NCBI GenBank assembly: GCA_963733055.1 | Contig: CAVTBR010000001.1 | Location: 224,001-288,000 of the forward strand | Direction of reading: 5' to 3' | DNA length: 64,000 bases | Source: Candidatus Bathyarchaeota archaeon | GTDB lineage: Archaea > Thermoproteota > Bathyarchaeia > 40CM-2-53-6 | Shown here: one piece after another, positions 4,876 through 36,560 of the stretch | Position numbering within the stretch: the first letter of the stretch is position 1 | Layout: every line of letters begins with the position of its first letter | Made by a program: the position numbers and the translations under genes | The notes under the pieces: model-generated | Seen by the model: only the letters and a program-made list of their open reading frames with translations | Database searches by the model: none | What the model was told of the DNA's origin: nothing

Positions 4876-4889
4876 TGTGCACACAGAGT

Positions 4890-7603: not shown

Positions 7604-7627
7604 ATCCTCCTATCTCTCTAACCTAAG

Positions 7628-10099: not shown

Positions 10100-10148
10100 A
10101 ATACAGAATGCGAGATTCTATAGGGAAGCGTGCCAGAAGAACGAACCG

Positions 10149-15597: not shown

Positions 15598-15757
15598 GCT
15601 AAGACATTGTTGTGTGGTCTATTATTCTATATCGGACTTTTGTTCGGAGCCCTCACATCTTATAAGACAAAGCCGTGTCGTCGCCGTCGTCGAGGCCAAA
15701 TGAAGAAAGGTTTCGATATCCACGACTTCAACCGCAGCTGGGACCTTGCCTCGCAAT

Positions 15758-19154: not shown

Positions 19155-20173
19155 CTTCCCCTACCTCCGGATTTGGTCATAATATCCAAATACTCATGAA
19201 AGGCGTCGCGTCTTCTGCCGTCAATGTTGGTTCTTCCCCATACCGCTTCCGCAGGAGAAATTCCGTTCTCCGTCGCAACTCTGAACAAGAGATCGTCGTA
19301 GAGCTGGGAAAATCTTCTCAATTCTACTGCCGCCTTATGTGCTTCCGCAAGCGGGTAGATATATCCAAGGCAGAGTTGAGATCGAGCGAATTGGGCCAAT
19401 CCTCCAAAGATTTCGGCGGGGTTAGAGTCTTTTGAAATAACATCGGTTCTGAACCATTTCGGAGCGTCCGGATGATACTTTACGAAATAGATTACTCCTT
19501 TCGGGCCGAGAGTTGTCACGCGAGGTTGGGGTGGTACCGCATAAACTAGCCCTTCAGCCTTTGTATATTGTAGAAGCTCCTCATCTGCCATGGAGAGTCC
19601 GAAAAGGTTCACATTGGAATCTTTTGAAATACCTACCAATGTGTTTCCATTTGTGGCGCATGCGTCAATCAATTCTTCCACCTTGGACTTGATTTTCCGC
19701 AAGGGAGGGGCAGTCAAGGTTCCATCAAGGACTATTGTCACACCGGTTCTTCTCTTAGCTACCCAAGCTGCGAGTTCGAGCTCGCGAAGAATGCGGGCGT
19801 ATGCTGCCATGCGCTTCGGCGCTTCGCTGCGTCTCTTGGCGGTCAGGCTTTGCAATTCTAATGCAAATTCATCTATTTGTGAGGCTAGTTTCCTCTCCGT
19901 TGTTACAAGTTGAGCGGCCTCGTTCACATTACATGCTTCAATGTTGTAGCTTTGATCATGTCCAAATTCGTAAGTGAGAGCCACGGCGCGAATTGCGATC
20001 ACCCATAGGCTTGACATTCTGTAGATGGGAGCATACGAGCCATCTATGGCGACAACCTTAGTTGGGTGGTCGCTCAGGGAGAACGGAATTACATCTATCC
20101 GTGGCAGTTGTCCTTCTGCCTCCTCTCTGGACCGCGTCCAATGATTCGAAATGATGGCGAAGGCTTTTCTCAC
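19151..20173 (-). CDS. nurA: NurA 5'-3' nuclease
   Basis: VAIDGS, IVLDGTL, GISKDS, GYIYPLAEAH; ATGA overlap with herA. Confidence 0.9.
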   Translation of the reverse strand: MRKAFAIISNHWTRSREEAEGQLPRIDVIPFSLSDHPTKVVAIDGSYAPIYRMSSLWVIAIRAVALTYEFGHDQSYNIEACNVNEAAQLVTTERKLASQIDEFALELQSLTAKRRSEAPKRMAAYARILRELELAAWVAKRRTGVTIVLDGTLTAPPLRKIKSKVEELIDACATNGNTLVGISKDSNVNLFGLSMADEELLQYTKAEGLVYAVPPQPRVTTLGPKGVIYFVKYHPDAPKWFRTDVISKDSNPAEIFGGLAQFARSQLCLGYIYPLAEAHKAAVELRRFSQLYDDLLFRVATENGISPAEAVWGRTNIDGRRRDAFHEYLDIMTKSGGRGR

Positions 20174-20207
20174 GTCGTCTTCGATATCGCTTAGGTGGAT
20201 GATGTCG

Positions 20208-22565
20208 CTAGACGTTCCGCGGCGCCTCCAAAATCATGCTGTGCTGCTCGGGCGTCATGTAAACTCTGATGCGTGATGGAAATTGATCAGCAACTTCCGT
20301 GATATGTGTGATTAGAATCACTTTCTCGAACATGTCACCTAGTGTGAATAGTTTCTTAATGAAGAGTGTTCTACTCTGTTCGTTGTCGAGGGAACCTAGA
20401 TCGCCTTCGTCTATAAACAGCGTCCTCATGTTTCCATATGACTTTCCAACTTGAGGCATGCTAGCTAACTCTTTCGCAATCGAAAATCGGAGGGCTGCAT
20501 TCACCTGTGTCTTTTCGCCGCCACTGAAAATGGAAACATCATGAAACAATCCATCAACCCCTTCAACTTCGATTCTGACGCCTCCTCCTCTCGTGTCGGT
20601 GTAGGGCGTTAGACGGATATTGTTGAGTCGGTTGTCAGTGAGTTCGCCTAAGATGAATGAGGATTCCCGACCAATACCCTGAAGCAGCTGATTGATCGCA
20701 TAGATTAGAATGCCTTTTCGGTGGAATACTTCCTCTTTCAGGATCGTGTATATCTCTTGTTTTGCGGTAAGCTCCTTTACTGACTTTTCTAGCTTTGTGA
20801 TTTCCGGTTTAAGCTTCTCTAACTCTATCACTTGTTCTTTCAGCTGTTTTTGTTTTCCTTGCGCCTCTCTGGTATCCCCAACCGCTTTGTCAACCCTCTT
20901 GCGTATTTCATCCAATTCGTCGGACAGGATCTTGTAGTTCTGCTCGTGCTCTCGTAACTTTTGTTCCTGGTCTTTCAGTCTTTGAAGGTCTTTTGTTAAT
21001 TGTGATGTTTTGAGGCGGAGTTCAATTATCAATGCTCGTTGATCTGGGAGGCTGTCGAGTCTGTCACGCCTTTTCTCGTAGGTTAAAGCTTCACGTTTAA
21101 TTGAGTTTAGTCTTGACCGAACTTGGCTCAGTCTTTCCTTTGTCTTTGTTGAGAAACCGATAGTCCGTTTGCTTGCCTCCAGCCGAGTAATCTGGGCTTG
21201 TTCTGTCCTTACTTGCGCAGCGTTCTTGGTCCGAACTTTGCTTAGATCTTCATCTAGTCGTCGCATCGACGAGTCTATTTCTGTCTTGATGAAGACGTCC
21301 CCCGTGATTAGTGCAGTTCGTTTTGAGAGTGAGGGGAGTTGCTTGGAGACGGTGACCTTTTCCTTCTTCAACTGCGCGACTAGGTTATGGTTGTCTTTAA
21401 GCCAGTTGAGTTCCCTTTCTATTCTTTCTCTTCGCTCATTAAGGGCGCCTTCCAGTCTGAGTATGTTGAACGCCTCGTCCTTGCCTAAACTGGTCTTGAG
21501 AGGGTTCAGGCGTCTCTGGTATTCGTCGAGTCTCTTGCGATAAGTCTGGGCCTGAGCTCGAAAGGAAGCATTGAATTTCGTGATGTTGTCAGCGTGGATT
21601 TCAATTTTCTGATCTATAGTTAGTATCTTCTGTTCCAGGCCCTGGAGTCGGTTTTCTTCCTTTGTAAGACCTGAGTACTCTTCTGAGGTTTTCTTTAGGT
21701 TCTTGACTTCCAGAGAAAGTTCGCTTCGTTCTTTATCGTTTCTTTCCGCTTCGTGCAGTTTTTGAGCCGCCTCACCGAGATCGCCATCCAAAGTCTTAAT
21801 GCCGTCGGAAACCTTGCCGTAAGTATCGTGGAGCGCTTGAAGTTTCGCAACTGTCCCTTTCTTTTCAGATTCTTGCTTCTTGAGTTCGTTAGCACTTTCC
21901 TTCAGCCCTTTAGCTTGTAACTCGGCCGTCTGTAGTTGCTTCCTCTTTTCAGGGAGGATATGTTCGTATGATTTCTCCATCTCTTCCATTCGAGTGGAGG
22001 CACGTAATGCGGTGTCTCTGGATTCTTTGAGACGTTCATCTGCTATCTTCTGAGCTCTCTCGAAAGCTTCCAGCCGAAATAACCGTTGGAAAATATCAAG
22101 CCGTTGTGCGCCGGTTTCGGAACCAATAGCTTTCATTTCGTCTTGACGGATAAATGTGGAATTTCTAAATCCGATGTAGTCGAGACCAACTATGTTGATG
22201 ATTTCACGTTGGATCTCTGTTGTGCTACCTCCTATTGCTTTGATGTTCTGATTGAGCGCTAGATAGTTGCGGCCAGCTTTGCGACCGCGTACGATCTCAA
22301 ACTTATTTCCGCTTTGATAGAACTCGAGGCGAACGTGTCCGTTCTTGTCAACAAAATCTTCGATTTTCAGCTTCTCATCGGTGCGGGAGGAATCGCCGTA
22401 CAATGCGAAGGTTATTGCATCCAAGATTGAGGACTTGCCGGATCCTGTGGGACCCGTAATCACCGTGAATTGTTCTTGGAAGGGTATCCTTGTAGGGTTT
22501 TTGTAGCGCATGAAGCCCTCTAATTCGATCGAATCTATCACGAAGCCAGAGGGGGGTTGACTCAT
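20208..22565 (-). CDS. rad50: Rad50/SbcC ABC ATPase with coiled coil, no Zn hook
   Basis: GPTGSGKSS, FIRQDE, FSGGE, LFIDEG..GSLD, LITH; no cysteine in the protein. Confidence 0.92.
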   Translation of the reverse strand: MSQPPSGFVIDSIELEGFMRYKNPTRIPFQEQFTVITGPTGSGKSSILDAITFALYGDSSRTDEKLKIEDFVDKNGHVRLEFYQSGNKFEIVRGRKAGRNYLALNQNIKAIGGSTTEIQREIINIVGLDYIGFRNSTFIRQDEMKAIGSETGAQRLDIFQRLFRLEAFERAQKIADERLKESRDTALRASTRMEEMEKSYEHILPEKRKQLQTAELQAKGLKESANELKKQESEKKGTVAKLQALHDTYGKVSDGIKTLDGDLGEAAQKLHEAERNDKERSELSLEVKNLKKTSEEYSGLTKEENRLQGLEQKILTIDQKIEIHADNITKFNASFRAQAQTYRKRLDEYQRRLNPLKTSLGKDEAFNILRLEGALNERRERIERELNWLKDNHNLVAQLKKEKVTVSKQLPSLSKRTALITGDVFIKTEIDSSMRRLDEDLSKVRTKNAAQVRTEQAQITRLEASKRTIGFSTKTKERLSQVRSRLNSIKREALTYEKRRDRLDSLPDQRALIIELRLKTSQLTKDLQRLKDQEQKLREHEQNYKILSDELDEIRKRVDKAVGDTREAQGKQKQLKEQVIELEKLKPEITKLEKSVKELTAKQEIYTILKEEVFHRKGILIYAINQLLQGIGRESSFILGELTDNRLNNIRLTPYTDTRGGGVRIEVEGVDGLFHDVSIFSGGEKTQVNAALRFSIAKELASMPQVGKSYGNMRTLFIDEGDLGSLDNEQSRTLFIKKLFTLGDMFEKVILITHITEVADQFPSRIRVYMTPEQHSMILEAPRNV

Positions 22566-23768
22566 TCTTCAAGCGCCTCCTTCAGAATCTCAATCCCTTT
22601 AGCAAGTAACTCGTCTCTTTGCCTATGCTTCGCGTAGTTCACTTCAATGAACGATTCGAGGAGGACCTGAGGCGTCATTATGCCAGCCTCAGGGAAGCCA
22701 CCGATGGGTTTCGTCAGAATTGGTACCCATTTGACTTTGTAATCGAAAGTTGGTCGGAGGGCCTCTGCAAGTCGAGTTTCTTGTATCAGTCTGCGAATCC
22801 CTTCGGGAAGTACGATCTCGACTCTCACCATCTTGTCCTTAATGTCAGGTGGTATTTGGTTGATGATTGTTTGCGTGGGGTTTGTATCTCCTGAATCAAT
22901 CCTCACGAGGATACGAACCATTTCTCGTGTCGGGAAATTATGAAACTCCCATTTCATGTCGACTGGGTCAATCGTTAGGAAGTGTTTCTCGCCCTCACGT
23001 TCACCCCAATCAATCCTCTCCACTGCGCCAACGAAAAGGATAGGGATACCTCGCACTTCTTTCGTTTGGCTTAGGTGGACATGGCCGAAAATCCCCATGT
23101 CGATATTGTCAGGTATCATTGAGGCGTTGAATTCAATCTCTCCCGGGTCGATTTCAGGAGTGACGGACGAGCTTAGGTCGGTGCCCTCGAAGTAATAGTG
23201 CGCCAGTAAAATCCTTGAATCAGCTTGCTGTCTTGAATACTTCTGAAGCAACTCCGCAATAATCTCGCGCCCAACCTCCTGTCTCTGATCCTCTGAGACT
23301 CCTGCCAATCCGCGATCAGTTTGCCCTATCAGGCTGTCGGGGTACAGGAAAGGCATGATCAAGAAGGAAATTTCCCTGCCCGCGACTCTTTCTATCCTAC
23401 ACTCTGGCTTCCTAAAGACGTGAACATTCGAATACCCTCGAAAATCGTCGATGGACGTCCCTCTACGAAACTCCCGCGGTTGGTCATGATTTCCGGCAAG
23501 AATGAAGACTGCTACTCCAGCTCGTGCAAGCGGTTCAATCACATCGTTTCTTACGTATTCGCGAAAGATTGGTGCGACGTGAGTTCTGTCGAAGAGATCA
23601 CCGAGGATGACAAATATCGAGGCCCGGTTCTCAATTGCATAGGCAGCAGCTCGTACTAGGTTGTGGTGCATATCGAGAGCGCGTTTCAGAGACGCCTGTC
23701 TGGGGATCAATTCTGATGTCGAAGTTGATTCCCTCATGAACATCTCCCACTACTACGATTTCGTTCAA
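22562..23768 (-). CDS. mre11: Mre11/SbcD nuclease, frameshifted at ~23685
   Basis: GDLFD, AGNHD, LAHY, FGHVH. The missing first motif (VVVGDVHEG) lies in another frame starting at TTG 23768; removing one base at ttt 23684-23686 restores it. Confidence 0.9.
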
Positions 23769-24030
23769 GGTATTCGCTTGATTTAATTGCTCTTCATTGT
23801 ATCTCTAGGTTATTATTAAAAACTAAAGGCTAGAGTGGTTATTGAATCAAAGTAAGCGACTTACCATTGATTATCAATCTCGATGACGCCTGAGAGATAA
23901 CCAAACTATCGTGCTTGTCATAGTTTCATTCATCTCTGAGCCACCCCAAAATTCCAGTTTCTGAAGACTCAGAGACATCTCATCCAACTCTCCGGGCGTT
24001 ATTTGGTAACATCAGTCTTGTCAAAAATTC

Positions 24031-24198
24031 ATGCAAACAGTAAACTGTCCAATTTGCGGAACCGAATTGCTCGGCCAGCAAGGTTACCCATTGCTACGTT
24101 GCCTTCCCTGCGATTGTTGGTTTGAGCGTCAACCAAACGGTTCGGTGGTTTCTCTTCATGTTGCAGCGCTTTTAGCCGCTGGCCGGGTTGCGGTATGA
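24031..24198 (+). CDS. Small Zn-ribbon protein (55 aa)
   Basis: My translation: MQTVNCPICGTELLGQQGYPLLRCLPCDCWF...; ATGA overlap with the next ORF. Confidence 0.65.
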   Translation: MQTVNCPICGTELLGQQGYPLLRCLPCDCWFERQPNGSVVSLHVAALLAAGRVAV

Positions 24199-24605
24199 TA
24201 TTCGAAGACAAGTCCACAGAGTGCCAGCACTGCCACAAGAAGAAGCTGATACTGATCAGCCATGTCAGGACGACGGAGCGGGACACGAAGACATTCATCT
24301 CCACGCTTCAATGCGACCTCTGCCACCGAGAATACACTCTAAGAGACGGCAAACTCGCGGAGAAACGAGAGGAACGAGACCCGGTCGCCGAAAGCATCGC
24401 CATGCATAAGGCCGAAGTAGACGCGGTCCGGAACCGACGTTGTCCTCATTGTGGCGGACCAATCGATGATTTCCTTACTTGCGATTGGTGCCATGAAAAA
24501 TACGCGGTGAAGAGCGGAGAACTCGTACGTAGAATCGAAGACTTGCTGTCCAGACAGCGTAAGCCCAGGATAAACGAGTTCTATGTCATCAGCACGAAGC
24601 AGTAG
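24195..24605 (+). CDS. Double Zn-ribbon protein
   Basis: CQHC..CDLC and CPHC..CDWC. Confidence 0.7.
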   Translation: MIFEDKSTECQHCHKKKLILISHVRTTERDTKTFISTLQCDLCHREYTLRDGKLAEKREERDPVAESIAMHKAEVDAVRNRRCPHCGGPIDDFLTCDWCHEKYAVKSGELVRRIEDLLSRQRKPRINEFYVISTKQ

Positions 24606-25041
24606 TCGTTATACTATTCACGCTCAGCGGTCATGCACCAGTTGCCACCAGATCACCGACCAGACTTCGGTAGGATGCCGATACAGTGACGTCGAAGTTC
24701 CTAAGGTTCCAAAGGCTTACCTGAAGCACGTCGAGTGGGTTTGTGATTGGTGCGGTAATTGTGAGGAGGAGGTCAAAGAGGTTCTTGAGCCCACTGATAG
24801 GATGAAGCTAGTGAAGAGGTTGTTGAGTATTCAGGAAGACAATGACGTATTGGGCTTCACTAAGTTCGGATCCGAACGTGATCTCGATCAGAATTCGTCT
24901 GATCCTCAACATTACGCTGAACATCAGAATGACTCCGGCGTGGGAAAAAGCAGATTACTCTATCCTGAGGTTAGTAATGTGCTCTTAATTTCCTTCTTCT
25001 CTATAGCGACCAAGACTCCGCTGAGTATGCCATCCGTATAA
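24583..25041 (+). CDS. Zn-ribbon protein
   Basis: CTSC..CDWC; overlaps the previous ORF; the 3' end overlaps the convergent gene, so the end is uncertain. Confidence 0.55.
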   Translation: MSSARSSSRYTIHAQRSCTSCHQITDQTSVGCRYSDVEVPKVPKAYLKHVEWVCDWCGNCEEEVKEVLEPTDRMKLVKRLLSIQEDNDVLGFTKFGSERDLDQNSSDPQHYAEHQNDSGVGKSRLLYPEVSNVLLISFFSIATKTPLSMPSV

Positions 25042-25898
25042 TTACTACCGGGATTAATGCAAAGAGTCTTTCCTATCTTATGCATGCCCATTGCTTCGTG
25101 AATATGCCCGTGTAGGCTGAGAAGCGGTTGATATCGTTGAATCAAATCTAAGACTGCTTTGCTGCCTACGTGCTCAGTTTCTCCACGCGCAGACACTTGC
25201 AGGCCGTTCTTTAGCTTCGGAGCGACATCCAATCCCGAGCCGAAGGGGGGATCATGGAGATTGAAGACAGAGCTCTGCAAATCCCGTATTTTGGCAACCA
25301 TCGTTTCGATTTTTTTCGCTAATTCCTCTTCGCTGCATTCCCTTGGGGTGTGCCAGGGTGTGGGGTTAGACCATCCGCAGCTCAACATCTCATGATCAGC
25401 GTCCAAATCTAATATCTTGCCTTCGGAATTCACGAGAACGTCGCTTTTCTGAAGAACTTCGTCGATGAACTCATAGTCATCATTTCCCGGACATACAATA
25501 ATTCTCTTACCGGTGGCCTTGAATTCGGTTTGAGCAATCTCGCTCCATTCCTTCAGTCTTTCAGTTATTTTTTCTTTGAAGATAGTCTCAGCCACTTTCT
25601 TTTCTCCAAGATCCTCCATCTGCCCGGCTTCGGTGGAATATGCATACAGTCCTGAATCAGCTATAAGCGCCTCATGCGCTTGCAGTTCCTGCCGGTTCTT
25701 TAATGTCCATTTTCTTCCCAAGAAACTTGAAGTGAAGGTTCCGTCGCTCTGATGAACAATCGGAACAATCGCCTTGCCGGTTATGTCTCCCCCTACAATT
25801 ACAACATCGGCTTTGTAGAATTTCCTCGCCTTTACAACTTTGTTCCAACATCTTGTGGAGCCATGAATGTCGGTACAAAAGAACACCTTCGTGATCAA
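24960..25898 (-). CDS. Icc-like metallophosphoesterase
   Basis: TDIHGS, GGDITG, PGNDD, LHDPP, HGHIHE, INPGS. Confidence 0.9.
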   Translation of the reverse strand: MITKVFFCTDIHGSTRCWNKVVKARKFYKADVVIVGGDITGKAIVPIVHQSDGTFTSSFLGRKWTLKNRQELQAHEALIADSGLYAYSTEAGQMEDLGEKKVAETIFKEKITERLKEWSEIAQTEFKATGKRIIVCPGNDDYEFIDEVLQKSDVLVNSEGKILDLDADHEMLSCGWSNPTPWHTPRECSEEELAKKIETMVAKIRDLQSSVFNLHDPPFGSGLDVAPKLKNGLQVSARGETEHVGSKAVLDLIQRYQPLLSLHGHIHEAMGMHKIGKTLCINPGSNYTDGILSGVLVAIEKKEIKSTLLTSG

Positions 25899-25967
25899 AC
25901 GTTACTCAACACCATTCAACTTGCGAATCATTGCGCGTTACATTAAACCGTGCAAGGTACTGAACGG

Positions 25968-26783
25968 TTAGGTTCCTCGCTTGTTTAGCGCCTCTTGCCA
26001 CTTTTGAGCGCTGACTGTTTTCTCAGATTGTTCCTCAACTTCGTTGTACCATTTCTTTCTCGGCCCGATGGAGGCCCGCAATTTCCATGAGGAAGACTTT
26101 GGCTCTCTTTCCAATCTTGAAGAGATATTTTCTATCTTGGACTGAAGGAAGTCGACTTCGTCGTGGGAAAGAACATCATCTAATTTTTTGGGAGCGACAT
26201 TATTGATCTTGTTAAGGTTTGTACGGACGGTATAGTAGAATCCCCAGTCATTTGAAAGGAGCCTTGCAATATAGTTGACATCGATGTTCTCTCTGTCTTC
26301 CTCTTCTGCTAGGGAATGTTCGAGGATTAGTACAGTGATATCGTCAATATCTCGTTCATCAATTCTCACAATTTGCAGTTTTTGCAAGAGTATGTCAGCG
26401 AGGCTGATCGTTGGATAGTCCAATTCGAGCCTATCTTCAAGGTGGATCGTATGGCACATGGCAATTTTGCCGAAGAAGACATCCAAGGTTAGCTGCCCAT
26501 TGTAGTATATGTCACGACTCAGCCCCGTGATCGTCTTTCTCTCGTAACCTCGTTTCTCAAGGAACTCTCTAAGAGGTCTTTGATGATGTGCTACAGTTAC
26601 AAGATCTATATCGTGGAGTTTTCTTCTCATCTTGTTCTCATGTAGTTCATTATACCTAGTACAATGGATCCTCACTGCACATCCGCTCGTTACTCGAGCA
26701 ACAACCCCTAACTCTCGAACCTTCTCGACTATGCTTATCGCTTCACGGACGAACTCCTGATCGCCGGGAACAGTTGAAGTCAA
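25968..26783 (-). CDS. Nucleotidyltransferase-fold protein
   Basis: VTSGCAV..HDIDL..LDVF, a pol-beta-like signature; LLQKLQI..ERDIDD. Confidence 0.65.
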   Translation of the reverse strand: MTSTVPGDQEFVREAISIVEKVRELGVVARVTSGCAVRIHCTRYNELHENKMRRKLHDIDLVTVAHHQRPLREFLEKRGYERKTITGLSRDIYYNGQLTLDVFFGKIAMCHTIHLEDRLELDYPTISLADILLQKLQIVRIDERDIDDITVLILEHSLAEEEDRENIDVNYIARLLSNDWGFYYTVRTNLNKINNVAPKKLDDVLSHDEVDFLQSKIENISSRLEREPKSSSWKLRASIGPRKKWYNEVEEQSEKTVSAQKWQEALNKRGT

Positions 26784-26900
26784 TCGGGAAACTCCCTAAG
26801 AGTCACCAGCTTATCGGTGACTTTCAGCAGATAACCACATGTCAGACATGCGCGATTGGCCGTGCCGGTCTGGCTACGATGCATTTGTCTGGGAATGTTT

Positions 26901-28511
26901 TCATGAAGGTGGGATCTGTCGGAAGGCCAGATCTATGTCAAGTCCCTTCCGTTTCCAATAGGCTCTCGATATGTAATAGAGAGCGACCGCCATCGCGTAA
27001 ACTAATATTGAGAGAACTATGGTTGGTGGTGAAATGCCAAATGATGCGTAGAAGGGGGCATTAGTAAAGTAGGCCGTCGTTACCCAGAGCGTAAGAGCTA
27101 ACGCCAACGCGGATATAATTGATAGAAGCGGAATCCCTGCTACCCTGGCCTTCAGAGGCATCAATTCGTACATGTCTTTCCGAATATACGGGAACATGAT
27201 GCCTGCTGCAGAGACAATCATCAGACCTATGAGAATCCAAAAGCCTTCGGCGGCAATGTAAACGTAAAGGTTCGCAAAAACTGCCAACACCAAAAGGGGA
27301 ATACTCACAATTAACAAAATCACGTGCCCGAAGGTCGGTGTTCTAAATCGGTCGCTCACGTGTGCCATTTTCGCTGGAAACATGCGGTCGAACGACCATG
27401 CAAGCCAGATCCTAGGAATGATTACTGCAAAGTTCATTAGAGCAACCGTCTCGGAGAGGAATATCACAAGTAATGCAAACGCATTAGCCCAACTTGGCAA
27501 CATTACTTGATACCATGACCAAGAAACCAGCACGCTAACAAACGGGTTGCCGATTGGAAGGCCGCTTACGCTACCCAACGAGCCAATCGCTGCTAAGAAT
27601 TTTAGGCCAGTCATGTTAATGAATGTCCAACCCAACAAAACATAGAGAACGATAAATCCCACCACAGCACCAGACATCATGATGTGCTGTCTTATTCCAC
27701 TATCAGCCTGTTTGACCTCACCTGCAATGTATGATGTCATGAATACGAACGGACAGATGAAAGCCACAACCTGAGACGCGAAGCTTAACGTCTGTTCCAT
27801 AGCTGGGCTCTCAGGAGGAAGCATGGCGAACCCAGCGCGTGTTGCATTACTAATGACCGTGTTGTACATGTCGGACTGAGTGGGAACGAACCTTAGAGAC
27901 CAAGCGTTGAAGGTAGCGGGGAAATTACCTGTCGCTGCTATAAACGCATAAGCCATAATCGCTACCGCAGGAATGGCGAGGATCCACACGACATTTTGCA
28001 TCCTCAGATACCATTTCATGCCTACAGCGCAGACCACCGTGACGATAATCGAAATTGCCGTACCGGTAAGAACGATGCCTAAAGGTTGCCATATCCAAGC
28101 GATAGCGCTGGCTGGGAAGACGGTACCTAAGAACATCCCCAGCAACGGAACCTCAAAGAATGCGTTACCGAAGACAAAGAAGAATAGGAAGCCGGCGGTT
28201 ACAGACCAGCTTATCAGGATCCCCACCAACGGATGCATGGCTCTGCTCAAGAATACGTATTCTCCTCCTGAACGAGGCATAGCGGACATAAAGTGAGCAT
28301 AAATGGAACTCAGCAGAATTGATGCGGTTCCTCCAATGAGCAACGCGAGTAACATGTTACCTCCGTTCGCGTATGATATGAAGTAGGGATTCAGAATGCC
28401 GAAGGCAAGTAAGCTTCCACCCTGGCAAAGGTTGAAAATAATTCCGCTTACCAGGCCTACTTCTCTAACTAATCCAGTCGATTGTCTGACGAACACTTGT
28501 TGCGATTTCAT
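26901..28511 (-). CDS. APC-family amino acid/polyamine permease
   Basis: FVRQSTGLVRE, MPRSGGEYVF, AGEVK, RIWLAWSFDRMFP; many TM segments. Confidence 0.9.
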   Translation of the reverse strand: MKSQQVFVRQSTGLVREVGLVSGIIFNLCQGGSLLAFGILNPYFISYANGGNMLLALLIGGTASILLSSIYAHFMSAMPRSGGEYVFLSRAMHPLVGILISWSVTAGFLFFFVFGNAFFEVPLLGMFLGTVFPASAIAWIWQPLGIVLTGTAISIIVTVVCAVGMKWYLRMQNVVWILAIPAVAIMAYAFIAATGNFPATFNAWSLRFVPTQSDMYNTVISNATRAGFAMLPPESPAMEQTLSFASQVVAFICPFVFMTSYIAGEVKQADSGIRQHIMMSGAVVGFIVLYVLLGWTFINMTGLKFLAAIGSLGSVSGLPIGNPFVSVLVSWSWYQVMLPSWANAFALLVIFLSETVALMNFAVIIPRIWLAWSFDRMFPAKMAHVSDRFRTPTFGHVILLIVSIPLLVLAVFANLYVYIAAEGFWILIGLMIVSAAGIMFPYIRKDMYELMPLKARVAGIPLLSIISALALALTLWVTTAYFTNAPFYASFGISPPTIVLSILVYAMAVALYYISRAYWKRKGLDIDLAFRQIPPS

Positions 28512-28727
28512 TTAGGAAAAACTTCTCAACTTTGAAATTTCTTCCGTTTTGGATAAAAGGCTTATGGGCTCAATCAGTTCGCGTACAAGCATTCAAAAGC
28601 TGAGAAATGGAGCTGAACGGGCGCGGGTGCGATTACGGCTGAATCCGTTGCAACCCGTTGCGGCGTTCCACCAATTGAACCCCAACCTTTTATCGACAGA
28701 CAAGATTAGCTGCTCAGAAGGCATGAA

Positions 28728-29600
28728 CTATAAACCGGCGCCGTCTTCATAGACTGTGATTATTGAAGACTGATCTTTTTCAGAAAGCCCCTTCTTCTCG
28801 GCAATTCGGTACACCTTCTCGGCCGCTTCAGCAACGAAAAGCGGCACGCACATCTCTTTTCCCAGGTCTGTCACCAATCGGATATCCTTGGAGGCAAGTC
28901 TGACTGGAAATACTGGCTGGTCGAATTCCCTGGTCAGCGCAGGCGGGAAATCGAGCGTTAGGATCGCGCTGTTAGCGGCGCCTGTCTTAAGCACTGCAAA
29001 TGCGACTCTCGGGTCTATTCCGCACTTCTTAGCGAGGACTACAGATTCGCTTATGGCAGCCAACTCGACTGTGGTTATGAGTTGATTCACAAGTTTCATT
29101 TGCATTCCCTTTCCATGACCTCCTAAGTAGAATGGTTCCCCGATGTCTCTGAGGAGAGGCAGCGCTTTCTCGTAAGCGTCCGTATCACCGCCTACCATAA
29201 TCGCCAAACTTCCAGCCTCAGCCCTAGCTTGTCCGCCACTTACCGGGGCGTCCAAGAACATCGCTCCTTTTTCCGAGGCATGACGTGCAATTCTTCTTGC
29301 GAGCTTTGGTGAACTTGTGCTCGTGTCCATCAAGACCGATCCTTTCGAGACACCATTCAACAAGCCGTCTCTATCAAAATAGACCTCTTCAATTTGAACC
29401 GGGCCCGGGAGTGATGTTATCACATATTCTGATATCTCTGCCAACTCCTTTGGAGTTCGTGCTACTCGGGCACCCGCATCAGCCAATGGATTGATCGCAT
29501 CTTTCCGAGTGTCGTAGACGGCTAGAAAATGCCCCCGTCTGAGTAGATTACGTGAAATTGCGGAGCCCATATGCCCGAGACCGACGATTCCAATTTTCAT
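28728..29600 (-). CDS. NAD(P)-dependent beta-hydroxyacid dehydrogenase (GarR/3-hydroxyisobutyrate DH family)
   Basis: IGIVGLGHMG, LDAPVSGG, MKLVNQ, KDIRL. Confidence 0.92.
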   Translation of the reverse strand: MKIGIVGLGHMGSAISRNLLRRGHFLAVYDTRKDAINPLADAGARVARTPKELAEISEYVITSLPGPVQIEEVYFDRDGLLNGVSKGSVLMDTSTSSPKLARRIARHASEKGAMFLDAPVSGGQARAEAGSLAIMVGGDTDAYEKALPLLRDIGEPFYLGGHGKGMQMKLVNQLITTVELAAISESVVLAKKCGIDPRVAFAVLKTGAANSAILTLDFPPALTREFDQPVFPVRLASKDIRLVTDLGKEMCVPLFVAEAAEKVYRIAEKKGLSEKDQSSIITVYEDGAGL

Positions 29601-29774
29601 AGTGACAAACTCCACCCTGCCTTACGACGTAGCGTGCCTAAAGCTTTTGGAAAACATTTTCTGAAAAATAACCCTTCTCGACTCCTCTAGACTGAATTCG
29701 AGGGGGCGCGTATCATCGTGAAAGAAGTGCAAAGCAGCGCTATGATCCTATGTTCTCTTCTGTAACCTTTCCCG

Positions 29775-31049
29775 CTAACTCTTGAGAACTGACTTGATTA
29801 TTGTGGCAACTTCTTCTTCCGTAGCAAAGCCGCGACTGCTATCTTTGATTTTCGCGCGGATCTTGTCGAGAATAACATCAAACTGCTGGTCATTGGCTTT
29901 CAATCCCATCATTGCAATCTTAACTCCGACAGCGGACAGGTTTCCCTTGCTTAAGGCAGCTTGTCCAAATTCCAGGCTCATCTCTGATCCGATCAGTTCG
30001 GGATGAATAACATTGTACGCGTACCAGAGTCCAGATAGAAGCGCCGCAATGTGAATGTCTGTCTCGTGTCGATAGATGTTTTCACCAACGACGCCCTTTA
30101 AGGGGCTGTTCTTAATTCCCCAAACCTCCTCGGCCAGTTTAGACAATGAGCCAAGTTTTTCCAGCTTGATTCCAGTCCTGACGTCGTAAAGAATCTCAAG
30201 CGCCGCGACAACTTCCTCAGTGGAGGCTACACCTGCTCTATCGCCCAGACCATTTACAGATACGTCGACCACCTCCGCCCCAGCTGTTACCGCTGCAAGC
30301 GCGTTTGCGCTTGCAAGTCCAAAGTCGTTATGATTATGGATAGCGAGTTGTGGCCTTGGGCCAACCAAATCTCTGAGCCACGTGAAGAAGTATTTCACGG
30401 CTTCCGGATTCGAACATCCGTAACCATCGGCGAAGTATATTCGGTCTGCACCCGCCTCCGCTGCTGCGGTGTAACAGTGATAATTGATATCGGGTCTCGT
30501 GATATTAGTACTCAACATAAACGCGGTAAAAGCGCCGCGATTCTTTGCATATTCGACTTCCTTTCTCACCAGACTTGCGAATTCCTCCTTTCTGATTCCG
30601 GGCACAACAAATTTCTCGGTCTCGGCCGTCCCGAAACCAATTAGGTTAACGATGTCCGCTCCAGCCGCGATTACTCCATCTATTTCTTTCTTCCAGTCTT
30701 CGGCCCACGTGCGCGTGTGAGCGCTCTGCTTAATGGAAACACCGCTCTTCTTCATTGCTACTGCGAATTCTCGGTGTTCGGCAACTGCTGCGGTGTAACC
30801 TACCTCTAACTCTTTGAAGCCGGCGTCTTCCAGAGCTTTTGCGACTCTTACAACTTGCTCTACACCTATGTGTTTCCGTCCTGGCACTGTGAGCCCCTCC
30901 CGAAGGGTTTCATCTTTCATGATGACATGTTTCGGCAAATTCATTGTAGACCTAACTTGATGGAGCAAATTCGAGTAGGTGTTCCACCATAGTTTGTTCG
31001 GTCCGAAAATCATCTCCTTTGACAACTCGTCGTTATCGATTGAGAACAT
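29775..31049 (-). CDS. DRE-TIM metallolyase (LeuA/homocitrate synthase-like)
   Basis: DETLREG, HNHNDFGLASANALAA, SVNGLGDRAG. Confidence 0.85.
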   Translation of the reverse strand: MFSIDNDELSKEMIFGPNKLWWNTYSNLLHQVRSTMNLPKHVIMKDETLREGLTVPGRKHIGVEQVVRVAKALEDAGFKELEVGYTAAVAEHREFAVAMKKSGVSIKQSAHTRTWAEDWKKEIDGVIAAGADIVNLIGFGTAETEKFVVPGIRKEEFASLVRKEVEYAKNRGAFTAFMLSTNITRPDINYHCYTAAAEAGADRIYFADGYGCSNPEAVKYFFTWLRDLVGPRPQLAIHNHNDFGLASANALAAVTAGAEVVDVSVNGLGDRAGVASTEEVVAALEILYDVRTGIKLEKLGSLSKLAEEVWGIKNSPLKGVVGENIYRHETDIHIAALLSGLWYAYNVIHPELIGSEMSLEFGQAALSKGNLSAVGVKIAMMGLKANDQQFDVILDKIRAKIKDSSRGFATEEEVATIIKSVLKS

Positions 31050-31176
31050 GTGCTATCAATCTCACTTCATCCGGCTGAGATAGCTTAGATAAAACTTGTG
31101 ACGCGTTCTACCGATTCCTGTACCTTTTCGTGATGGTTTGCGAAAGAGACGGCTGCGGCACAACAGGACGGAGAAC

Positions 31177-32127
31177 CTATGCTATGTATCTCCTAGCGAT
31201 CCTCGCGGTGCAACTATACCAATTCGGGTCAAAACCTTGATTTACACGTATTTCGCCGACCGCGCTGAGGAGTTGGTAGGCATCAATGAGATCGAAACCA
31301 TAAAACCTTACGAGTCTTAGCGTAAGGTCGCAATAAGCAGCTCTGTACGCATCGTCCAACGAACCGCCAAACGGGCAGGAGACTGACCCAATGCCATCAG
31401 GAAAATCTATTTGCGGCCAATCTACATATTGTGCGTCCTTCTTTTTGATTAGTGAGATATCCAATGTTACTTGAGCTTCCGTATCCACGTGCGCACTGGA
31501 CAGTTCCCCGTCGCCGGTTACAGCGGCGACATCGCCTAACGAGAGCAGGCCGCCCCTTACATTAGTACGAAGAATTATTTTGTTGCCGACTCTTGCGTCA
31601 GGGCTATCGATGTTTCCGCCAAACTCTTGGCCGTGGTAGACCGTTCCAATGCGTTCTGCCCGCGGAGCTACTCCAATGGTTCCGACTACTGGATTCAGCG
31701 GGATCCGAATGGTTTTCTTGTGCTTAAGCGGGAAGAGGACCTCGTTGCCTTCGATAGGGCATATTTTCGATATTTGTTGAAGTGGAGGCAGAATAGAATA
31801 GGGCCCCGATAGACCTCCAAAGCCAGGAACGACTTCTGTAAATCCTTGATGAAGTGTACCACCACATTTGATCTCTTTGATGTGGACCACCAAGTTGTCT
31901 CCCGGCTCTGCACCTTCAACGAATATCGGACCCGATACCGGGTTTGCACCTCCGATCCCTCTCCTTTCCATTTCTTCGGGAGTGCAGATATCTCCCTCGG
32001 TTCTAATGATTCCCGCCGCCGCGTCCAGAGTATCGACTATCACAGTTTCCGGTGGAATGATTGAGATAACCGGTTTTACGTCTGGAGAGAAGAAGTATTG
32101 CACGTTATCTGCGGTCAGCTTCTTCAT
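31177..32127 (-). CDS. Acetamidase/formamidase family protein
   Basis: NPVSGPIFVEGAEPGD, GTIGVAP, GGNIDS, LSLGD..GDGE. Confidence 0.9.
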   Translation of the reverse strand: MKKLTADNVQYFFSPDVKPVISIIPPETVIVDTLDAAAGIIRTEGDICTPEEMERRGIGGANPVSGPIFVEGAEPGDNLVVHIKEIKCGGTLHQGFTEVVPGFGGLSGPYSILPPLQQISKICPIEGNEVLFPLKHKKTIRIPLNPVVGTIGVAPRAERIGTVYHGQEFGGNIDSPDARVGNKIILRTNVRGGLLSLGDVAAVTGDGELSSAHVDTEAQVTLDISLIKKKDAQYVDWPQIDFPDGIGSVSCPFGGSLDDAYRAAYCDLTLRLVRFYGFDLIDAYQLLSAVGEIRVNQGFDPNWYSCTARIARRYIA

Positions 32128-32172
32128 TTAAGAAATCGGCTGGACTCACGTAAACAAACATTTAACGCTTGT

Positions 32173-33012
32173 CTATAATACCATTGATTTTCGCACGTGC
32201 GAAGCTGATCTCGTAGCGCTGACCCTTGCGCGGGAGTAATTCTTGGAAACTGACCAGAGCCTTTCGAATAAAGCATAAATTCCTCCTATGAACCGAGGGT
32301 TGTTAGTGAAGAGATCTAATTCCTTCAGTCTCGGATTGCTATCCTCGTCGATTCGATCAAAGATGGGGCCAAAGAACATTTGCTCTTTGTCTATAATGTC
32401 AGCATAAAACAAGACATTCTTTGAAAGTCGAACCTGCGCATATCTAGACAAGATATTTGCAGCCTTGATGTTGGATTTATCGATCTCAGTGATCAAACGA
32501 ACGTTGACGTTTCTCTTCCTTGCAGATATGATTGCCTCAGCTATTCCGCGTTCTACAGACTTCGAAAAACCATATTTGCCCGAAATGCCTGCATAATCGT
32601 TTTTTGCTAGGGCTAGCGTTTTGATGAATCGTTGGTCTAATTGAACCCTATTAATCAGACTTATGTGATTGAACTTTGGATTAACTTGAACATTCCGCGA
32701 TAAAGATCTAATCAAATCATCCTTACTTGTCTCTAGGCTAGCACAGGTATCCCGCAATTGCTTGATCATTAGAGGTAACGCTACCGCTGGTAGAGTCGCA
32801 GTGAAAGTTGAAGGCCACGATAGGTTACGCTGCACCAGACCCTTCGTCGAAAGTTCACGGAGGACCCGATAAACTTCGGGCCTAGCAATTCCTAACGCAG
32901 TGCCAATTTGAGGTGCCTTGAGCGTTCCGAAGCGGATAAGCGCAAGGTAAATTCTAGCTTGTAGTAATGTTAGTCCGAACTTCATTATTTCTTGTGCTTC
33001 TTCGTGGGACAA
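32173..33012 (-). CDS. TrmB-family transcriptional regulator
   Basis: FGLTLLQARIYLAL..IARPEVYRVLRELSTKGLV; C-terminal effector domain. Confidence 0.85.
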   Translation of the reverse strand: MSHEEAQEIMKFGLTLLQARIYLALIRFGTLKAPQIGTALGIARPEVYRVLRELSTKGLVQRNLSWPSTFTATLPAVALPLMIKQLRDTCASLETSKDDLIRSLSRNVQVNPKFNHISLINRVQLDQRFIKTLALAKNDYAGISGKYGFSKSVERGIAEAIISARKRNVNVRLITEIDKSNIKAANILSRYAQVRLSKNVLFYADIIDKEQMFFGPIFDRIDEDSNPRLKELDLFTNNPRFIGGIYALFERLWSVSKNYSRARVSATRSASHVRKSMVL

Positions 33013-33102
33013 GTAGTAACGGCTCCTGCTAACAAGTGCTTATGTGTGGATTGTAACTTACAATCCTATTTATACGGTGGTCGCTAAGATACGCAGGGTG
33101 CA

Positions 33103-33903
33103 GTGCAGGAAGACCAAAGTATTGTAGCTCTCCAACTTGACCAACTCAAGTTTCCGTCCATTACCTTAAGGCCGGTAAATGAGAAACTGGTTGTCGAGCT
33201 AGCTAGGTCTATTGAAAACACAGGACTTCTACAACCAATTGTTGTGCGAAGACAAAATGCGGATTACGAAGTCGTATTCGGAAATCATCGGGTTGAAGCG
33301 TGTAAACGCTTAGGAATGAAATGGATAAACTCACTAATTATCTCATTCACCGACGAGGATGCTTTCTTAGCGCGTATATCGGAGAACATTCTCAAGAATA
33401 CGCATGTGGATCCCTTGGAGGAGGCGAGAGGATACAGGATGCTAATTGAAAAGGGATGGACGGTCAACTCGATTGGTAAAAAAGTAGGGAAATGTGACAG
33501 CTACATCAGCGAGAGGTTGGCCCTACTGGACAATCTCCCTCGAAAAATCCGGTCAGATGTTAGAAGTGGTTTCTTGACTCCAAGTCATGCAGAGCTACTT
33601 TCGAGGATTCATGATGCAGATAGGCAAAGCGCTATCGCCGAGTTGGTCAAGAACAAAAAGTTGAGCGTACGATCGCTAGAGAACTTACTGAAAAAAACAC
33701 CGCACCCTGTCAAGACAGAGGTGTGTTGTTTGCCGAACGAGTGCACTCTAAAAATTCCTCCACAGTTTGCGGAAGCCATGGGCTTAGGAATGGGTAAGGG
33801 AGTCTTCATGTACATGCAGGGACGAAAATTAGTAATTGAGGCCACGCGTGCAACACGGGGTGGCAACAGCCAGTTCGAACACAGAAACCAACCGTACGAA
33901 TAG
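33103..33903 (+). CDS. ParB/Spo0J-family protein with C-terminal AbrB-like domain
   Basis: LARSIENTGLLQPIVVR, VFGNHRVEA, DPLEEA, HTH; C-term LKIPPQFAEAMGL..GRKLVIE. Confidence 0.85.
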   Translation: MQEDQSIVALQLDQLKFPSITLRPVNEKLVVELARSIENTGLLQPIVVRRQNADYEVVFGNHRVEACKRLGMKWINSLIISFTDEDAFLARISENILKNTHVDPLEEARGYRMLIEKGWTVNSIGKKVGKCDSYISERLALLDNLPRKIRSDVRSGFLTPSHAELLSRIHDADRQSAIAELVKNKKLSVRSLENLLKKTPHPVKTEVCCLPNECTLKIPPQFAEAMGLGMGKGVFMYMQGRKLVIEATRATRGGNSQFEHRNQPYE

Positions 33904-34067
33904 AACCCTTCAACTGGGAAACCAACAACATAAACGATTGCACATACACGAGGGAATTTGCCAGTGCTCCCTCAGGTTTCTGTCAGATAGGAGCGCGACA
34001 GGCTTCGAACTAGTTCGTTTGAGTTAGATTTTTCATATAAGGACATCGAAGGGTGGAGGTAGGACTG

Positions 34068-34189
34068 CGACATTTAGTAACGGAAAAACCTGGCAGTTTC
34101 GCGATGCTCCGACGACATTCAGTAATGGCAATTACCCACAAATCGCCGACAGGGAGTCTTGGACACGACAGTTACTAATGTGGATGAAA
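34068..34189 (-). repeat. Four imperfect 16-bp direct repeats; candidate TnsB-binding sites and transposon end
   Basis: CGACATTTAGTAACGG (34068), CGACATTCAGTAATGG (34113), CGACAGGGAGTCTTGG (34147), CGACAGTTACTAATGT (34166). Confidence 0.6.
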
Positions 34190-34233
34190 GCGTAGTCTGA
34201 ATTTAATATTCAAGATAGAGGAAAAGAGTTCCT

Positions 34234-34642
34234 ATGGCCTCTGTTCAAGTCAGATATATTGTGCACAACGTAGACTCTGCAATAGACTTCTATTGTAAAC
34301 ACCTTGGCTTCAATGAGGTTATGCATCCCGCTCCAGCATTTGCCATGCTCTCCAGGGGTGACCTTCGACTTGTGCTTAGCGCCCCGAACCCCCGGATCAG
34401 GTGGAGGCCAACCCATGCCGGATGGCAGGAAACAGGAGCCCGGCGGTTGGAATCGTTTCGCGGTCGAAGTCGATGATCTCGCGGCCACGGTCGAAATTAT
34501 GCGGAAGGCCGGCGTCCATTTCAGAAATGACATCATAACCGGCGTGGGCGGAAAACAGATCCTGGCCGAGGACCCTTCAGGTAATCCCGTCGAGCTGTTC
34601 GAACCGATCCTTCCTGAGGCTCGGCTACAACCGAAAAAGTGA
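34234..34642 (+). CDS. VOC/glyoxalase family protein, frameshift in C run at ~34390
   Basis: VRYIVHNVDSAIDFY joined to GGWNRFAVEVDDL..EDPSGNPVELFEP. Confidence 0.88.
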
Positions 34643-34762
34643 CGGACAACCCTCTTCACCCGGCAAAGTCGTTGGCTCAATAGAAGAGGCTCTTGTTAAT
34701 GGGAAGCCTGTCACTCTTCCCATGAGTGTTCGGATTACGGAGTAACGTGTCGAGGCAGGAAC

Positions 34763-35173
34763 ATGAAAGAATATGCAGTAAAGCCCATCGGGTTCATTCG
34801 ATCGCCGATTAAGAACCGAAAGGACGCACCACGATTCTACACGGAGGGAGCGCCCAACGCCGTTTTGGAGTTGATTCCTAAATACAGAGACGGTTTGGAT
34901 CAAATGAAAGTTGGAGACGAAGTCATCGTGATTACATGGCTTCATCGCGCCCACAGGAGGATTCTAAAGGTCCACCCTAGAGGCGACTCGTCTCGCCCGC
35001 TTACGGGCGTCTTCATGACTAGATCACCTGATCGCCCGAACCCGCTGGGTCTTCATCGAGCAAAAGTATTGGAGATAAACGCAAATAGTCTCCTTATCGG
35101 CCCCATCGAGGCTATCGACGGAACCCCAGTCGTCGACATAAAGCCCGTAGTCGAACACGCAAGCGATTCTTAG
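34763..35173 (+). CDS. tsaA: TrmO/TsaA tRNA (t6A37) methyltransferase family
   Basis: KPIGFIRSP, GVFMTRSPDRPNPLGL, IDGTPVVDIKP. Confidence 0.9.
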   Translation: MKEYAVKPIGFIRSPIKNRKDAPRFYTEGAPNAVLELIPKYRDGLDQMKVGDEVIVITWLHRAHRRILKVHPRGDSSRPLTGVFMTRSPDRPNPLGLHRAKVLEINANSLLIGPIEAIDGTPVVDIKPVVEHASDS

Positions 35174-35480
35174 CCTAATTGTAGGTCTTTCACCAAAAGT
35201 GGTATGCAGGGCGGAAACGATCTCCGCCCACGGCGAGCTTAAGCTACCTGTTCCTCTTGTCTAACGTTCTTGTCGTGCTCAGAATCTAACCTCATCCGAA
35301 CTTTGCGTTTCTTACCCAAACCTCAAACACCTCCGTTCTTGTCCTGGGAATAAGTTGTGTCCTAAGTGCATTTAACCTGGCTTGGAGAGAAAGTCGGAAA
35401 GCGTAATTATACCGCATTTCTACTCAGTAGAATCTCTGCTTAGTGGAACAGTAGACGGTGGATGATTTTTATGGGCATCA

Positions 35481-36346
35481 TCAGCCGCTTACAAGGGAAC
35501 GCGCGAGCAAGAATACGTTGCTCTTGTGCTCGCGGATTCTCCGAACGGAGTATCCCCACCATCCTTTTCCAAAGGGTATGTAATCGCTGACCCTGTATCC
35601 AGCAGTTGTGCGAGTTCAATCTTCTTCTTGTCCCTAATCCCCATCAACATCTCAAACTCGAAATCTACTTGCCGAGCCTTACTCAGTTCCGCTGCTTCCT
35701 CAATCAATTTCTCATGATGCGTGGCAATAGCGAAACCTTGCCCTCGTTCAAACATCACTCGCATCAGCTTTGAGAAATTCTCGTTAATCTGATTCTTCCG
35801 TTTGAAAGCGATCGTTGGGCTCTCGTTGTAGGCGCCTTTAACTAATCTTATCATTCCCTTGGCGTCAAGGATTCGGTTGACGTCTTCTTCGCTTCTCTTC
35901 AAGTACGCTTGGATTGCGACCCCGACATTGTCAAATTTCTTCCTAAATTCCAGGTACGAATCGATGGTATTCGTTGTGTATGGGGATCCTTCGATATCGA
36001 TCCATACGAAGTTCCCGAGTGATTTCGCGGCCACCAGAATATTGCTCAAATTTTCCTCGTAGAGCTTCCTGTTGATACTCAGACCGAGCTGAGTTGGTTT
36101 GATTGAAATGCAGCTTCGAATCTTCCGTGCTTCGATTGCTTTCAGGATCTCTAGATACTCTGTTGTGGCTGCAGCAGTTTCCTCCCTTGTCTCATGCTCC
36201 TCTCCAAGAAGATTTATGATTCCCAGCATCTTCTCGGCGTTCGCTTGTTCAGCGCGCTCCAATGCCTCCTGGTAGGTCTCACCGGCTATCCAATGTTTGG
36301 CAATTTGGAATAACAGACCACTCCACAGAGTTGCCAAATTAGTCAC
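35481..36346 (-). CDS. Proline dehydrogenase, frameshift at ~35603
   Basis: WIAGET, ISIKPTQLG, IQAYL, RLVKGAY, IATH, EMLMGI; the expected tail GYRVSDYIPFGKGWWGYSVRRIRE lies in another frame ending at 35481. Confidence 0.88.
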
Positions 36347-36560
36347 CGCTCAGGCCCATGAGGCCGTCCCGAATAAAGTTGATTAGCATTTCTTGCCGCA
36401 GACAACATCCATTCTATGTGAAGCAGACCAGTGTGTGAAGAGGCAAAGTAGGTTCTCCCAACGGTTGAACCTTTCAGGGTTCTTGGCGAATAGATAACGC
36501 GTCGCCTATGTCCGTACGCCGCCAAAGAAATTATAACTCCCAATTGCGCATTCGAGAAAC

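Follow-up and report, generated by a model that had tools for sequence, protein, structure and literature searches.

Extent and far end of a probable 34.5-kb Tn7-like transposon beside a tRNA-Thr gene in a Candidatus Bathyarchaeota archaeon

Four short repeats in the genome of a Candidatus Bathyarchaeota archaeon raise the question whether they close off a mobile element and, if so, where that element starts, where it stops, and what it carries in between. They lie in a stretch of 64,000 nucleotides (assembly GCA_963733055.1, contig CAVTBR010000001.1, positions 224,001 to 288,000), hereafter called the window; plain coordinates refer to it, and those with the prefix C1 refer to the whole contig. 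The genome itself is denoted G000, and other genomes and loci carry G and L numbers. The original prediction described positions 34068-34194 as four repeats in the same orientation, spaced by 45, 34, and 19 bp, and read them as one end of a Tn7-like transposon of more than 34 kb with its interior to the left, toward the tns genes. The sequence is as described, including the minus-strand stretch quoted for 34166-34189. The assignment to a Tn7-like end is borne out as well (by inverted arrays, tns genes, and an end design common to a family of relatives), and so are the direction of the interior and the size; the exact tip and the target duplication turned out otherwise. Judging from sequence anatomy, the repeats at 34068-34170 are very likely the far end of one 34,467-bp Tn7-like transposon beside a tRNA-Thr(CGU) gene.

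Two inverted arrays, one of them beside a tRNA-Thr gene

In the window sequence, the CGACA core is found four times in the same orientation, with starts at 34068, 34113, 34147, and 34166 and spacings of 45, 34, and 19 bp. The 2.88-Mb genome holds 3,029 CGACA pentamers in total, and this array is the sole spot where at least four of them fall inside 150 bp (C1:258068-258166). The 16-mer proposed as repeat consensus (CGACAkTTAGTAATGG) has four matches in the window with up to three mismatches, at 33823, 34068, 34113, and 34166, where shuffled sequence led us to expect 0.70; none of 100 shuffles gave four or more. The match at 33823, within a ParB-like gene, is probably a chance occurrence, and the copy at 34147 is absent from the four, having little beyond CGACA in common with the others. 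In the outermost repeat just the five bases CGACA belong to the element, and the remainder (GTTACTAATGT) is flanking DNA. An Rfam search of positions 33000-36000 with E values up to 1 returned no family. The parts of this end are as follows.

34059-34170, minus strand: terminal module of 112 bp that forms the far (distal, Tn7 left-end-like) end and has candidate transposase-site cores at wide spacing; recognized by the CGACA cores, the homology to a relic in genome G014, and the far-end layout of metagenome contig L076
34068-34083, minus strand: innermost well-conserved site (minus strand ...TTACTAAATGTCG), with an exact WTAYTRAATGTCG match and equivalents in L076 and in the G014 relic
34113-34128, minus strand: inner site, well conserved, of the candidate transposase-binding type (minus strand ...TTACTGAATGTCG), with an exact WTAYTRAATGTCG match
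34147-34165, minus strand: second core with the 14-nt terminal spacer, diverged in G000 by comparison with the family consensus
34166-34170, minus strand: terminal pentamer CGACA (minus strand 5'-TGTCG), with 34170 as last base of the element, placed by the family ends, the abutting duplication, and the limit of the G014 homology
34171-34175, plus strand: copy of the 5-bp duplication GTTAC next to the far tip; identical 5-mers abut both termini

Inverted copies of the motif were expected to the left of the window, beyond tniQ, and they are present there. Six TGTCG cores (C1:223704, 223723, 223743, 223765, 223790, and 223817) are packed 19-27 bp apart, in an array (C1:223704-223821) that lies 296 to 179 bases to the left of window base 1 and adjoins tniQ-tnsC-tnsAB. 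This sixfold cluster of TGTCG (C1:223704-223817) is again the only one in the 2.88-Mb genome. The far and near arrays are mutually inverted, and each begins, counted from its tip, with two cores at a distance of 19 bp. Exact copies of the 13-mer WTAYTRAATGTCG number four in the whole genome, two forward ones in the near end and two reverse ones, at 34068 and 34113. With the 16-mer, a genome-wide search allowing up to two mismatches yielded six forward and no reverse matches (controls: five and six); the reverse copies were missed because the sites of the near end deviate in the final bases of the 16-mer, and the shorter core pattern retrieved them. Between the tns genes and 34 kb there are no other clusters of at least four CGACA and no other exact 13-mer sites, and a screen for inverted 13-mers between the flanks gave scattered chance matches only. 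Position 7707, considered as an end owing to a 13-nt inverted match with CGACAATTA, was rejected; it has one motif-like copy only, with 10-bp repeats at 7747-7781.

The near terminus is situated 35 nt downstream of the CCA of an intron-bearing tRNA-Thr(CGU) gene. Rfam scores this tRNA (C1:223557-223665) at 40.7 bits, the threshold being 29, and shows two inserts in it; the anticodon loop CUCGUAA, read by hand, assigns it to Thr(CGU). ARAGORN missed the gene both with and without its intron option. In the gene, taken as C1:223557-223668, the inserts measure 28 nt (D-arm region) and 15 nt (anticodon loop), and they vary among the species of the genus.

Transposition genes and cargo

Between the two arrays, the window holds the following parts of the element.

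1-34170: in-window portion of the 34,467-bp element, which starts 296 bases to the left of base 1 (ends, duplication, composition)
100-1159, minus strand: tniQ_a, putative target selector adjoining tnsC, split in two frames near base 900 (Pfam TniQ)
1187-2197, minus strand: tnsC, TniB-type AAA+ ATPase of 336 aa (Pfam TniB, 1.3e-45)
2191-4806, minus strand: fused tnsAB, 871 aa, with a putative TnsA-like N-terminal part and a TnsB transposase (solved TnsB chains; family matches to PF08722)
4872-5648, plus strand: divergent winged-helix/HTH protein, 258 aa (weak HTH_IclR match)
5689-6906, minus strand: tniQ_b, second TniQ, intact, 405 aa (Pfam TniQ, 5.8e-20)
6907-7506, minus strand: accessory Cas4-like PD-(D/E)XK nuclease, 199 aa (Pfam PDDEXK_1/Cas4; PADLOC Cas4, 3.4e-17)
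7507-34058: cargo region (Pfam; PADLOC)

Residues 339-841 of the TnsAB protein match solved TnsB chains from I-F3, V-K, and Tn7 systems with E values from 1e-43 to 2e-29, and the family profile gives 5e-82; in Pfam, Mu-transpos_C is found at 5e-12 and rve weakly at 0.014. PF08722, the family of the TnsA-like N-terminal domain, has no match in the G000 protein itself at E up to 1, but it is detected in five of 14 aligned full-length relatives (best 4.4e-06) and in an N-terminal fragment from G013 (4.7e-07). The N-terminal third is thus putatively TnsA-like, by family-level evidence only. Both tnsAB and tnsC are as long as in the relatives, and TnsC is 55-67% identical to the copies in L076-L079. 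As for tniQ_a, positions 1-38 of the Pfam TniQ domain fall in one open reading frame (836-1159) and positions 61-142 in another (100-960), and an intact 455-aa protein in L076 is matched by both pieces, at its residues 18-83 and 80-235.

Farther upstream, tniQ_b is kept in front of tnsAB in G013, L076, L077, L078, and L080. Opposite-strand frames of 245-258 aa take the position of the HTH gene in G013, L060, and L077, a correspondence in placement and length only. The Cas4-like gene is limited to G000 and G013 among the loci compared and hence is not a core gene of the family. A paralogue of it, 78% identical, is found elsewhere on the contig (C1:1567642-1568226).

Pfam identifies in the cargo region a HerA-NurA-Rad50-Mre11 cluster and an OLD-family nuclease, beside genes for an MBL-fold protein, a phosphoesterase, a permease, a dehydrogenase, enzymes of the HMGL-like and formamidase-like types, a ParB-like protein, and a TrmB regulator. 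The OLD-family nuclease (15758-17539) is also recognized by PADLOC (Old, 3.9e-77). Several frames in the element have no Pfam match, among them 8140-9303 and 12636-14828. Positions 1-36000 contain no CRISPR-like repeat array (a single 33-bp tandem repeat was seen) and no Rfam family at threshold, and among the scanned reading frames there is no Cas effector, only the solo Cas4-like gene.

Two groups of cargo genes deserve a separate remark. The HerA-NurA-Rad50-Mre11 cluster (17571-23743), inside the transposon and beside the OLD nuclease, is the only one in the genome: no second copies of HerA, NurA, Rad50, or Mre11 are found at E below 1e-8. In the genus, HerA has weak matches (24-28% identity) in five of 22 relatives and no match in most. 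The TrmB and ParB-like genes have a paralogous pair at C1:1477772-1479498, 44% and 53% identical. HerA/NurA/Rad50/Mre11, TrmB-type regulators, and the intron-bearing tRNA give the genome as a whole an archaeal appearance.

In composition, the element stands apart from its host. Its GC content is 47.5% compared to 50.6 +/- 0.95% for the genome, a value that is equally low in just 0.5% of 558 windows of the same size, and its tetranucleotide distance ranks in the top 0.7% of 141 windows. The profile that had been suggested as a check across 34.2 kb shows a GC content that stays evenly low throughout 1-34 kb and climbs after 36 kb. This composition agrees with a foreign origin of the element.

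Just outside the far tip lies a glyoxalase/VOC-family gene in two overlapping frames (34234-34476 and 34304-34642), which suggests a frameshift. A sequence of about 200-230 bp at 35207-35433 recurs in at least eight other places in G000 and in several in G013 and G016, with 71-83% identity. It has no match in Rfam; a miniature mobile element and an uncharacterised RNA gene are both conceivable.

Relatives, exact termini, and competing readings

Among 105 genomes of the order, the TnsAB protein was found in two (G000 and G013). A word-based protein search with it returned six proteins at E <=1e-10, the best other one being 49% identical; HMMER returned 8,358 proteins at E <=0.001, with about a dozen full-length fused ones at 30-47% identity. 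A single-protein search of genome contigs found no locus, and a later search of genome contigs found 16, of which one is titled a Thaumarchaeota MAG (L060, 41%) and 15 are titled bacteria or 'bacterium'. Metagenome contigs provided five more loci (L076-L080, 44-54% identity). L060 ends 875 bp past tnsAB with no ends seen; a TGACA cluster considered as its end was dismissed, being located inside a coding frame.

The relatives with a shared end design come from metagenomes and have a TnsAB 46-54% identical to that of G000. All four metagenome loci that reach past tniQ_a (L076-L079, of which L077 and L079 have identical ends) show the same order of tnsAB-tnsC-tniQ_a, a packed TGTCG array, and then the 3' end of a tRNA, whose anticodon region is CTCGTAA in L076, L077, and L078 (where printed). 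Taken together, G000, G013, and L076-L079 all have their packed end next to a tRNA-Thr(CGU)-type gene, 20-35 nt downstream; the distance is 20-23 nt in the five relatives versus 35 nt in G000. In L076-L079 the arrays start with TGT(A/C)G followed by 14 nt and TGTCG, placing the terminal TGT exactly 19 nt before the next core. For the family overall, the ends read TGT(A/C)(G/A), with TGTAG or TGTCG in L076-L079 and TGTCA cores in G013. L076 is complete (124-15916, 15,793 bp, TGTAG...CTACA) with CCCCC on both flanks, which sits in C/G runs, and the spaced sites of its far end closely resemble those of G000. The 14-nt far terminal spacer agrees with the family consensus at 6/14 positions in G000, compared to 10-13 in six other ends and 5 in G013; the value for the G014 relic is 10/14.

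Two further traces of the family occur at the same tRNA-Thr in the genus. G013 (L049, G013:C32:33001-53000, 1791-13538) has a second, decayed member, with TGTCA-core sites 21 nt past the CCA and a C-5 DNA methylase as cargo. The identity to G000 is 62-65% for its Cas4-like protein and tniQ_b product but only ~30% for its tnsAB, which is spread over several frames. Its tns genes face away from the tRNA, and a far end was looked for and not found. G014 has a relic, namely a lone far-end module (L018 11857-11967, G014:C1) 4.7 kb downstream of the orthologous tRNA-Thr. It is 85% identical over 92 bp to 34059-34150, and the homology ends at ...GACA|G (34170/34171). No tns genes were found in G014, and its tRNA is not followed by a near end.

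These comparisons fix the termini. The pentamer GTTAC abuts both tips at offsets 0/0 (C1:223699-223703 and 34171-34175). The duplication scan covered 2,500 offset pairs and produced six 5-mer matches; the GTTAC match counts because it occurs at the offsets that the family alignment had independently picked. Those positions are supported independently by the 19-bp core spacing at both ends, the TGT(A/C)(G/A) starts in the family, and the stop of the G014 homology. The element accordingly runs from C1:223704 to window position 34170 (34,467 bp), with the tips 5'-TGTCG...CGACA-3'. Its ends are asymmetric, with six cores 19-27 bp apart on the tRNA side versus four cores 19, 34, and 45 bp apart on the other. 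It hence combines the traits of the Tn7 type: 5'-TGT...ACA-3' termini, a 5-bp duplication, inverted asymmetric arrays, and an att-adjacent position.

The surroundings of the tRNA are less regular. In G015, G018, and G033, 217-315 bp separate the orthologous pair of FAD oxidoreductase and tRNA from the Pro_dh region, compared to 35.8 kb in G000, and the Pro_dh region (35483-36416) is inverted in G000 with respect to these three (L037, L034, and L035); in G011 and G017, Pro_dh is on the 5' side of a tRNA copy. None of the relatives has, next to the tRNA, an equivalent of the 1.3 kb to the right of the tip (34171-35483), and five relatives lack a contiguous counterpart of the DNA at 20001-35400. 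In agreement with what the prediction implied, the genes of the 24-34 kb region are not kept contiguous with the VOC gene at the DNA level in the five relatives searched. Owing to the Pro_dh inversion and to the sequence downstream of tRNA-Thr, which differs in every relative examined, we regard the tRNA flank as a rearrangement hotspot. The empty site that was expected upstream of the VOC gene in relatives was not found in clean form. Its reconstruction failed: a post-tRNA sequence of ~125 bp, common to G032, G015, and G016, is missing from G000, and the TrmO homologue of G016 is in another core region. The FAD oxidoreductase to the left of the tRNA (L007 18548-19498, G000:C1:222548-223498) has 316 aa and lacks ~120 internal residues compared to its 455-aa counterpart in G014; as its C-terminus is intact and the deletion is internal, it is not a gene cut by the insertion.

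A few points speak against a single element, namely the 35-nt tRNA spacing, the 6/14 spacer, the want of a clean empty site, and the zero reverse 16-mers. One competing reading is that two unrelated remnants are involved, with the far end stemming from an older element at the tRNA hotspot and the near end with the tns genes representing a later, shorter insertion, so that the 34.5 kb never moved as one unit. Besides the diverged terminal spacer and the unusual tRNA-to-terminus distance, this would fit the lone far-end relic of G014, left 4.7 kb from the same tRNA without a near end, and the variability downstream of the tRNA in every relative examined. Nonetheless, we consider it improbable. 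Because GTTAC abuts both termini exactly, both ends are best assigned to one insertion event; moreover, an alternative end is missing between the tns genes and 34 kb (no other cluster of at least four CGACA or exact 13-mer site), and the GC content is uniformly low over 1-34 kb and up after 36 kb. Even less credit is due to the idea that the repeats serve the ParB-like protein (33103-33903) or another regulator as a centromere-like or operator array, without any part in transposition. It is true that the array begins 165 bp past the ParB-like gene and that a weak copy (33823) lies inside it. The same sites, however, recur in inverted orientation 34.5 kb away beside tniQ and the tRNA, the relatives carry arrays in loci that have no ParB match, and the paralogous TrmB-ParB pair is without such a cluster.

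The single transposon being preferred, its tip could still lie elsewhere, and the original prediction had put it at 34189, with TTT in place of the terminal TGT, GCGTA (34190-34194) as target duplication, and an end possibly immobilised by the TGT-to-TTT change. The quoted sequence is there, and the rule behind it, which sets the terminal TGT some 19 nt ahead of a TGTCG core, is valid throughout the family; the prediction missed the right core by one, in the outward direction. In the family alignment, the terminal TGT is part of the outermost core itself, so the minus-strand tip TGTCG retains its TGT and there is no change to TTT. The homology of the G014 relic likewise halts at 34170/34171, and the duplication that abuts the tip is GTTAC. 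GCGTA does not occur at the matching offset by the other end (its closest occurrence there, upstream of the tRNA, is 156 bp away from the terminus), and none of the six 5-mer matches is GCGTA. An end at 34189 is therefore hardly credible. The suspicion of immobility may nevertheless be right for other reasons: with its tniQ_a frameshifted and the 14-nt spacer of its far end diverged, the G000 copy may be unable to move on its own.

Place among Tn7-like elements

The transposon shares with Tn7 a TnsB-family transposase, a TniB/TnsC ATPase, and a TniQ/TnsD-type selector, as well as the 5-bp duplication and an insertion just downstream of a conserved gene that is left undisrupted. Deviating from Tn7 (TnsABCDE, attTn7 downstream of glmS), its TnsA and TnsB are fused, TnsE is absent, the target is a tRNA gene, and its sites have a TGTCG core that is unrelated to the Tn7 site sequence. 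In Tn7, the tns operon reads inward from the right end; in the family of the G000 element it is read toward the packed, att-proximal end, which is a contrast at the level of the family. The ends themselves are built alike, with a packed att-proximal end and a spaced other end: those of Tn7 are described as an 8-bp end sequence with 22-bp sites, of which four overlap at the right and three at the left are 42 and 31 bp apart (PMC9308760). Homing downstream of tRNA genes and TnsAB fusion are also features of CRISPR-associated transposons. As reported in the literature, the tRNA-targeting Tn7-like elements of bacteria include I-B2, I-D, and V-K CRISPR-associated transposons (bioRxiv 10.1101/2025.07.27.667033), and TnsAB fusions are found in some type I-B systems (PMC11915506). 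The G000 element differs from these in having no CRISPR array and no Cas effector among the reading frames scanned, and targeting is presumably achieved by protein alone.

In archaea, such elements have come into view only lately. Benler et al. (2021) stated that Tn7-like transposase homologues were not found in the archaeal genomes then available (PMC8649781), and Krupovic et al. (2019), in the part of their account of thaumarchaeal mobile elements considered here, mention Tn7 in the CRISPR context only (PMC6563490). More recently, Thesier et al. (2025; bioRxiv 10.1101/2025.07.27.667033) reported that, of 13,858 archaeal assemblies, 24 encode TniQ-domain proteins, every one a metagenome bin. 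Their candidate elements number 16, and for four of these both ends were defined (25.8, 15.8, 13.9, and 8.4 kb). An Asgard element was reconstituted in E. coli with a mate-out assay and gave a 5-bp duplication; the terms 'Nitroso' and 'Thaumarch' have zero occurrences in the main text. Their Clade V (15.8 kb, fused tnsAB, beside tRNA-Thr) resembles the G000 element by shared traits, as far as that main text describes it: an archaeal host, fused tnsAB, tnsC, tniQ, a tRNA-Thr att site, TGT ends, and cargo. L076 (15,793 bp) has the same size as Clade V and is likened to it by size alone. With 34.5 kb, the G000 element is larger than all four complete elements quoted there. It is further set apart from the elements as presented in that text by its two TniQ genes with a divergent HTH gene, and by the further traces that its host genus has at this tRNA, namely the decayed element of G013 and the relic of G014. 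In short, it is a large, well-delimited further example of the kind already described in the 2025 preprint, with fused tnsAB beside tRNA-Thr.

What we observe is sequence anatomy, and Tn7 serves as the model for binding, cleavage, and targeting. By that analogy, the TnsB part would bind ...TAYTRAATGTCG-type sites at both ends and pair the ends, after which it would cut and join each end at its terminal ...ACA-3', and the TnsA part would cut the other strand. A TniQ protein would recognize the tRNA-Thr gene and recruit TnsC, and the element would then insert downstream of that gene at a short, constant distance, its packed end toward the tRNA, and produce a 5-bp duplication (here GTTAC). A bolder proposal, which we find possible though rather unlikely, is that of a working two-pathway archaeal Tn7 family. 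In it, tniQ_a would direct insertion to tRNA-Thr, whereas tniQ_b and the divergent HTH gene (plus the Cas4-like gene in two genomes) would serve a second pathway, e.g., into mobile DNA, like TnsE; the element would ferry a complete HerA-NurA-Rad50-Mre11 cluster and an OLD nuclease into a genus otherwise without close copies.

For the annotation of this genome, the element explains a 34.5-kb low-GC island. As the G000 copy lies on a 1.57-Mb contig, with base-level positions for its ends, its duplication, and the att tRNA, and as several relatives share one end design, it gives a defined end sequence, a tRNA-Thr target, and intact orthologous proteins for reconstitution. More broadly, elements of this kind can move more than 25 kb of cargo between archaea, which here includes genes of both the defence type (OLD, Cas4-like) and the DNA-repair type (HerA-NurA-Rad50-Mre11).
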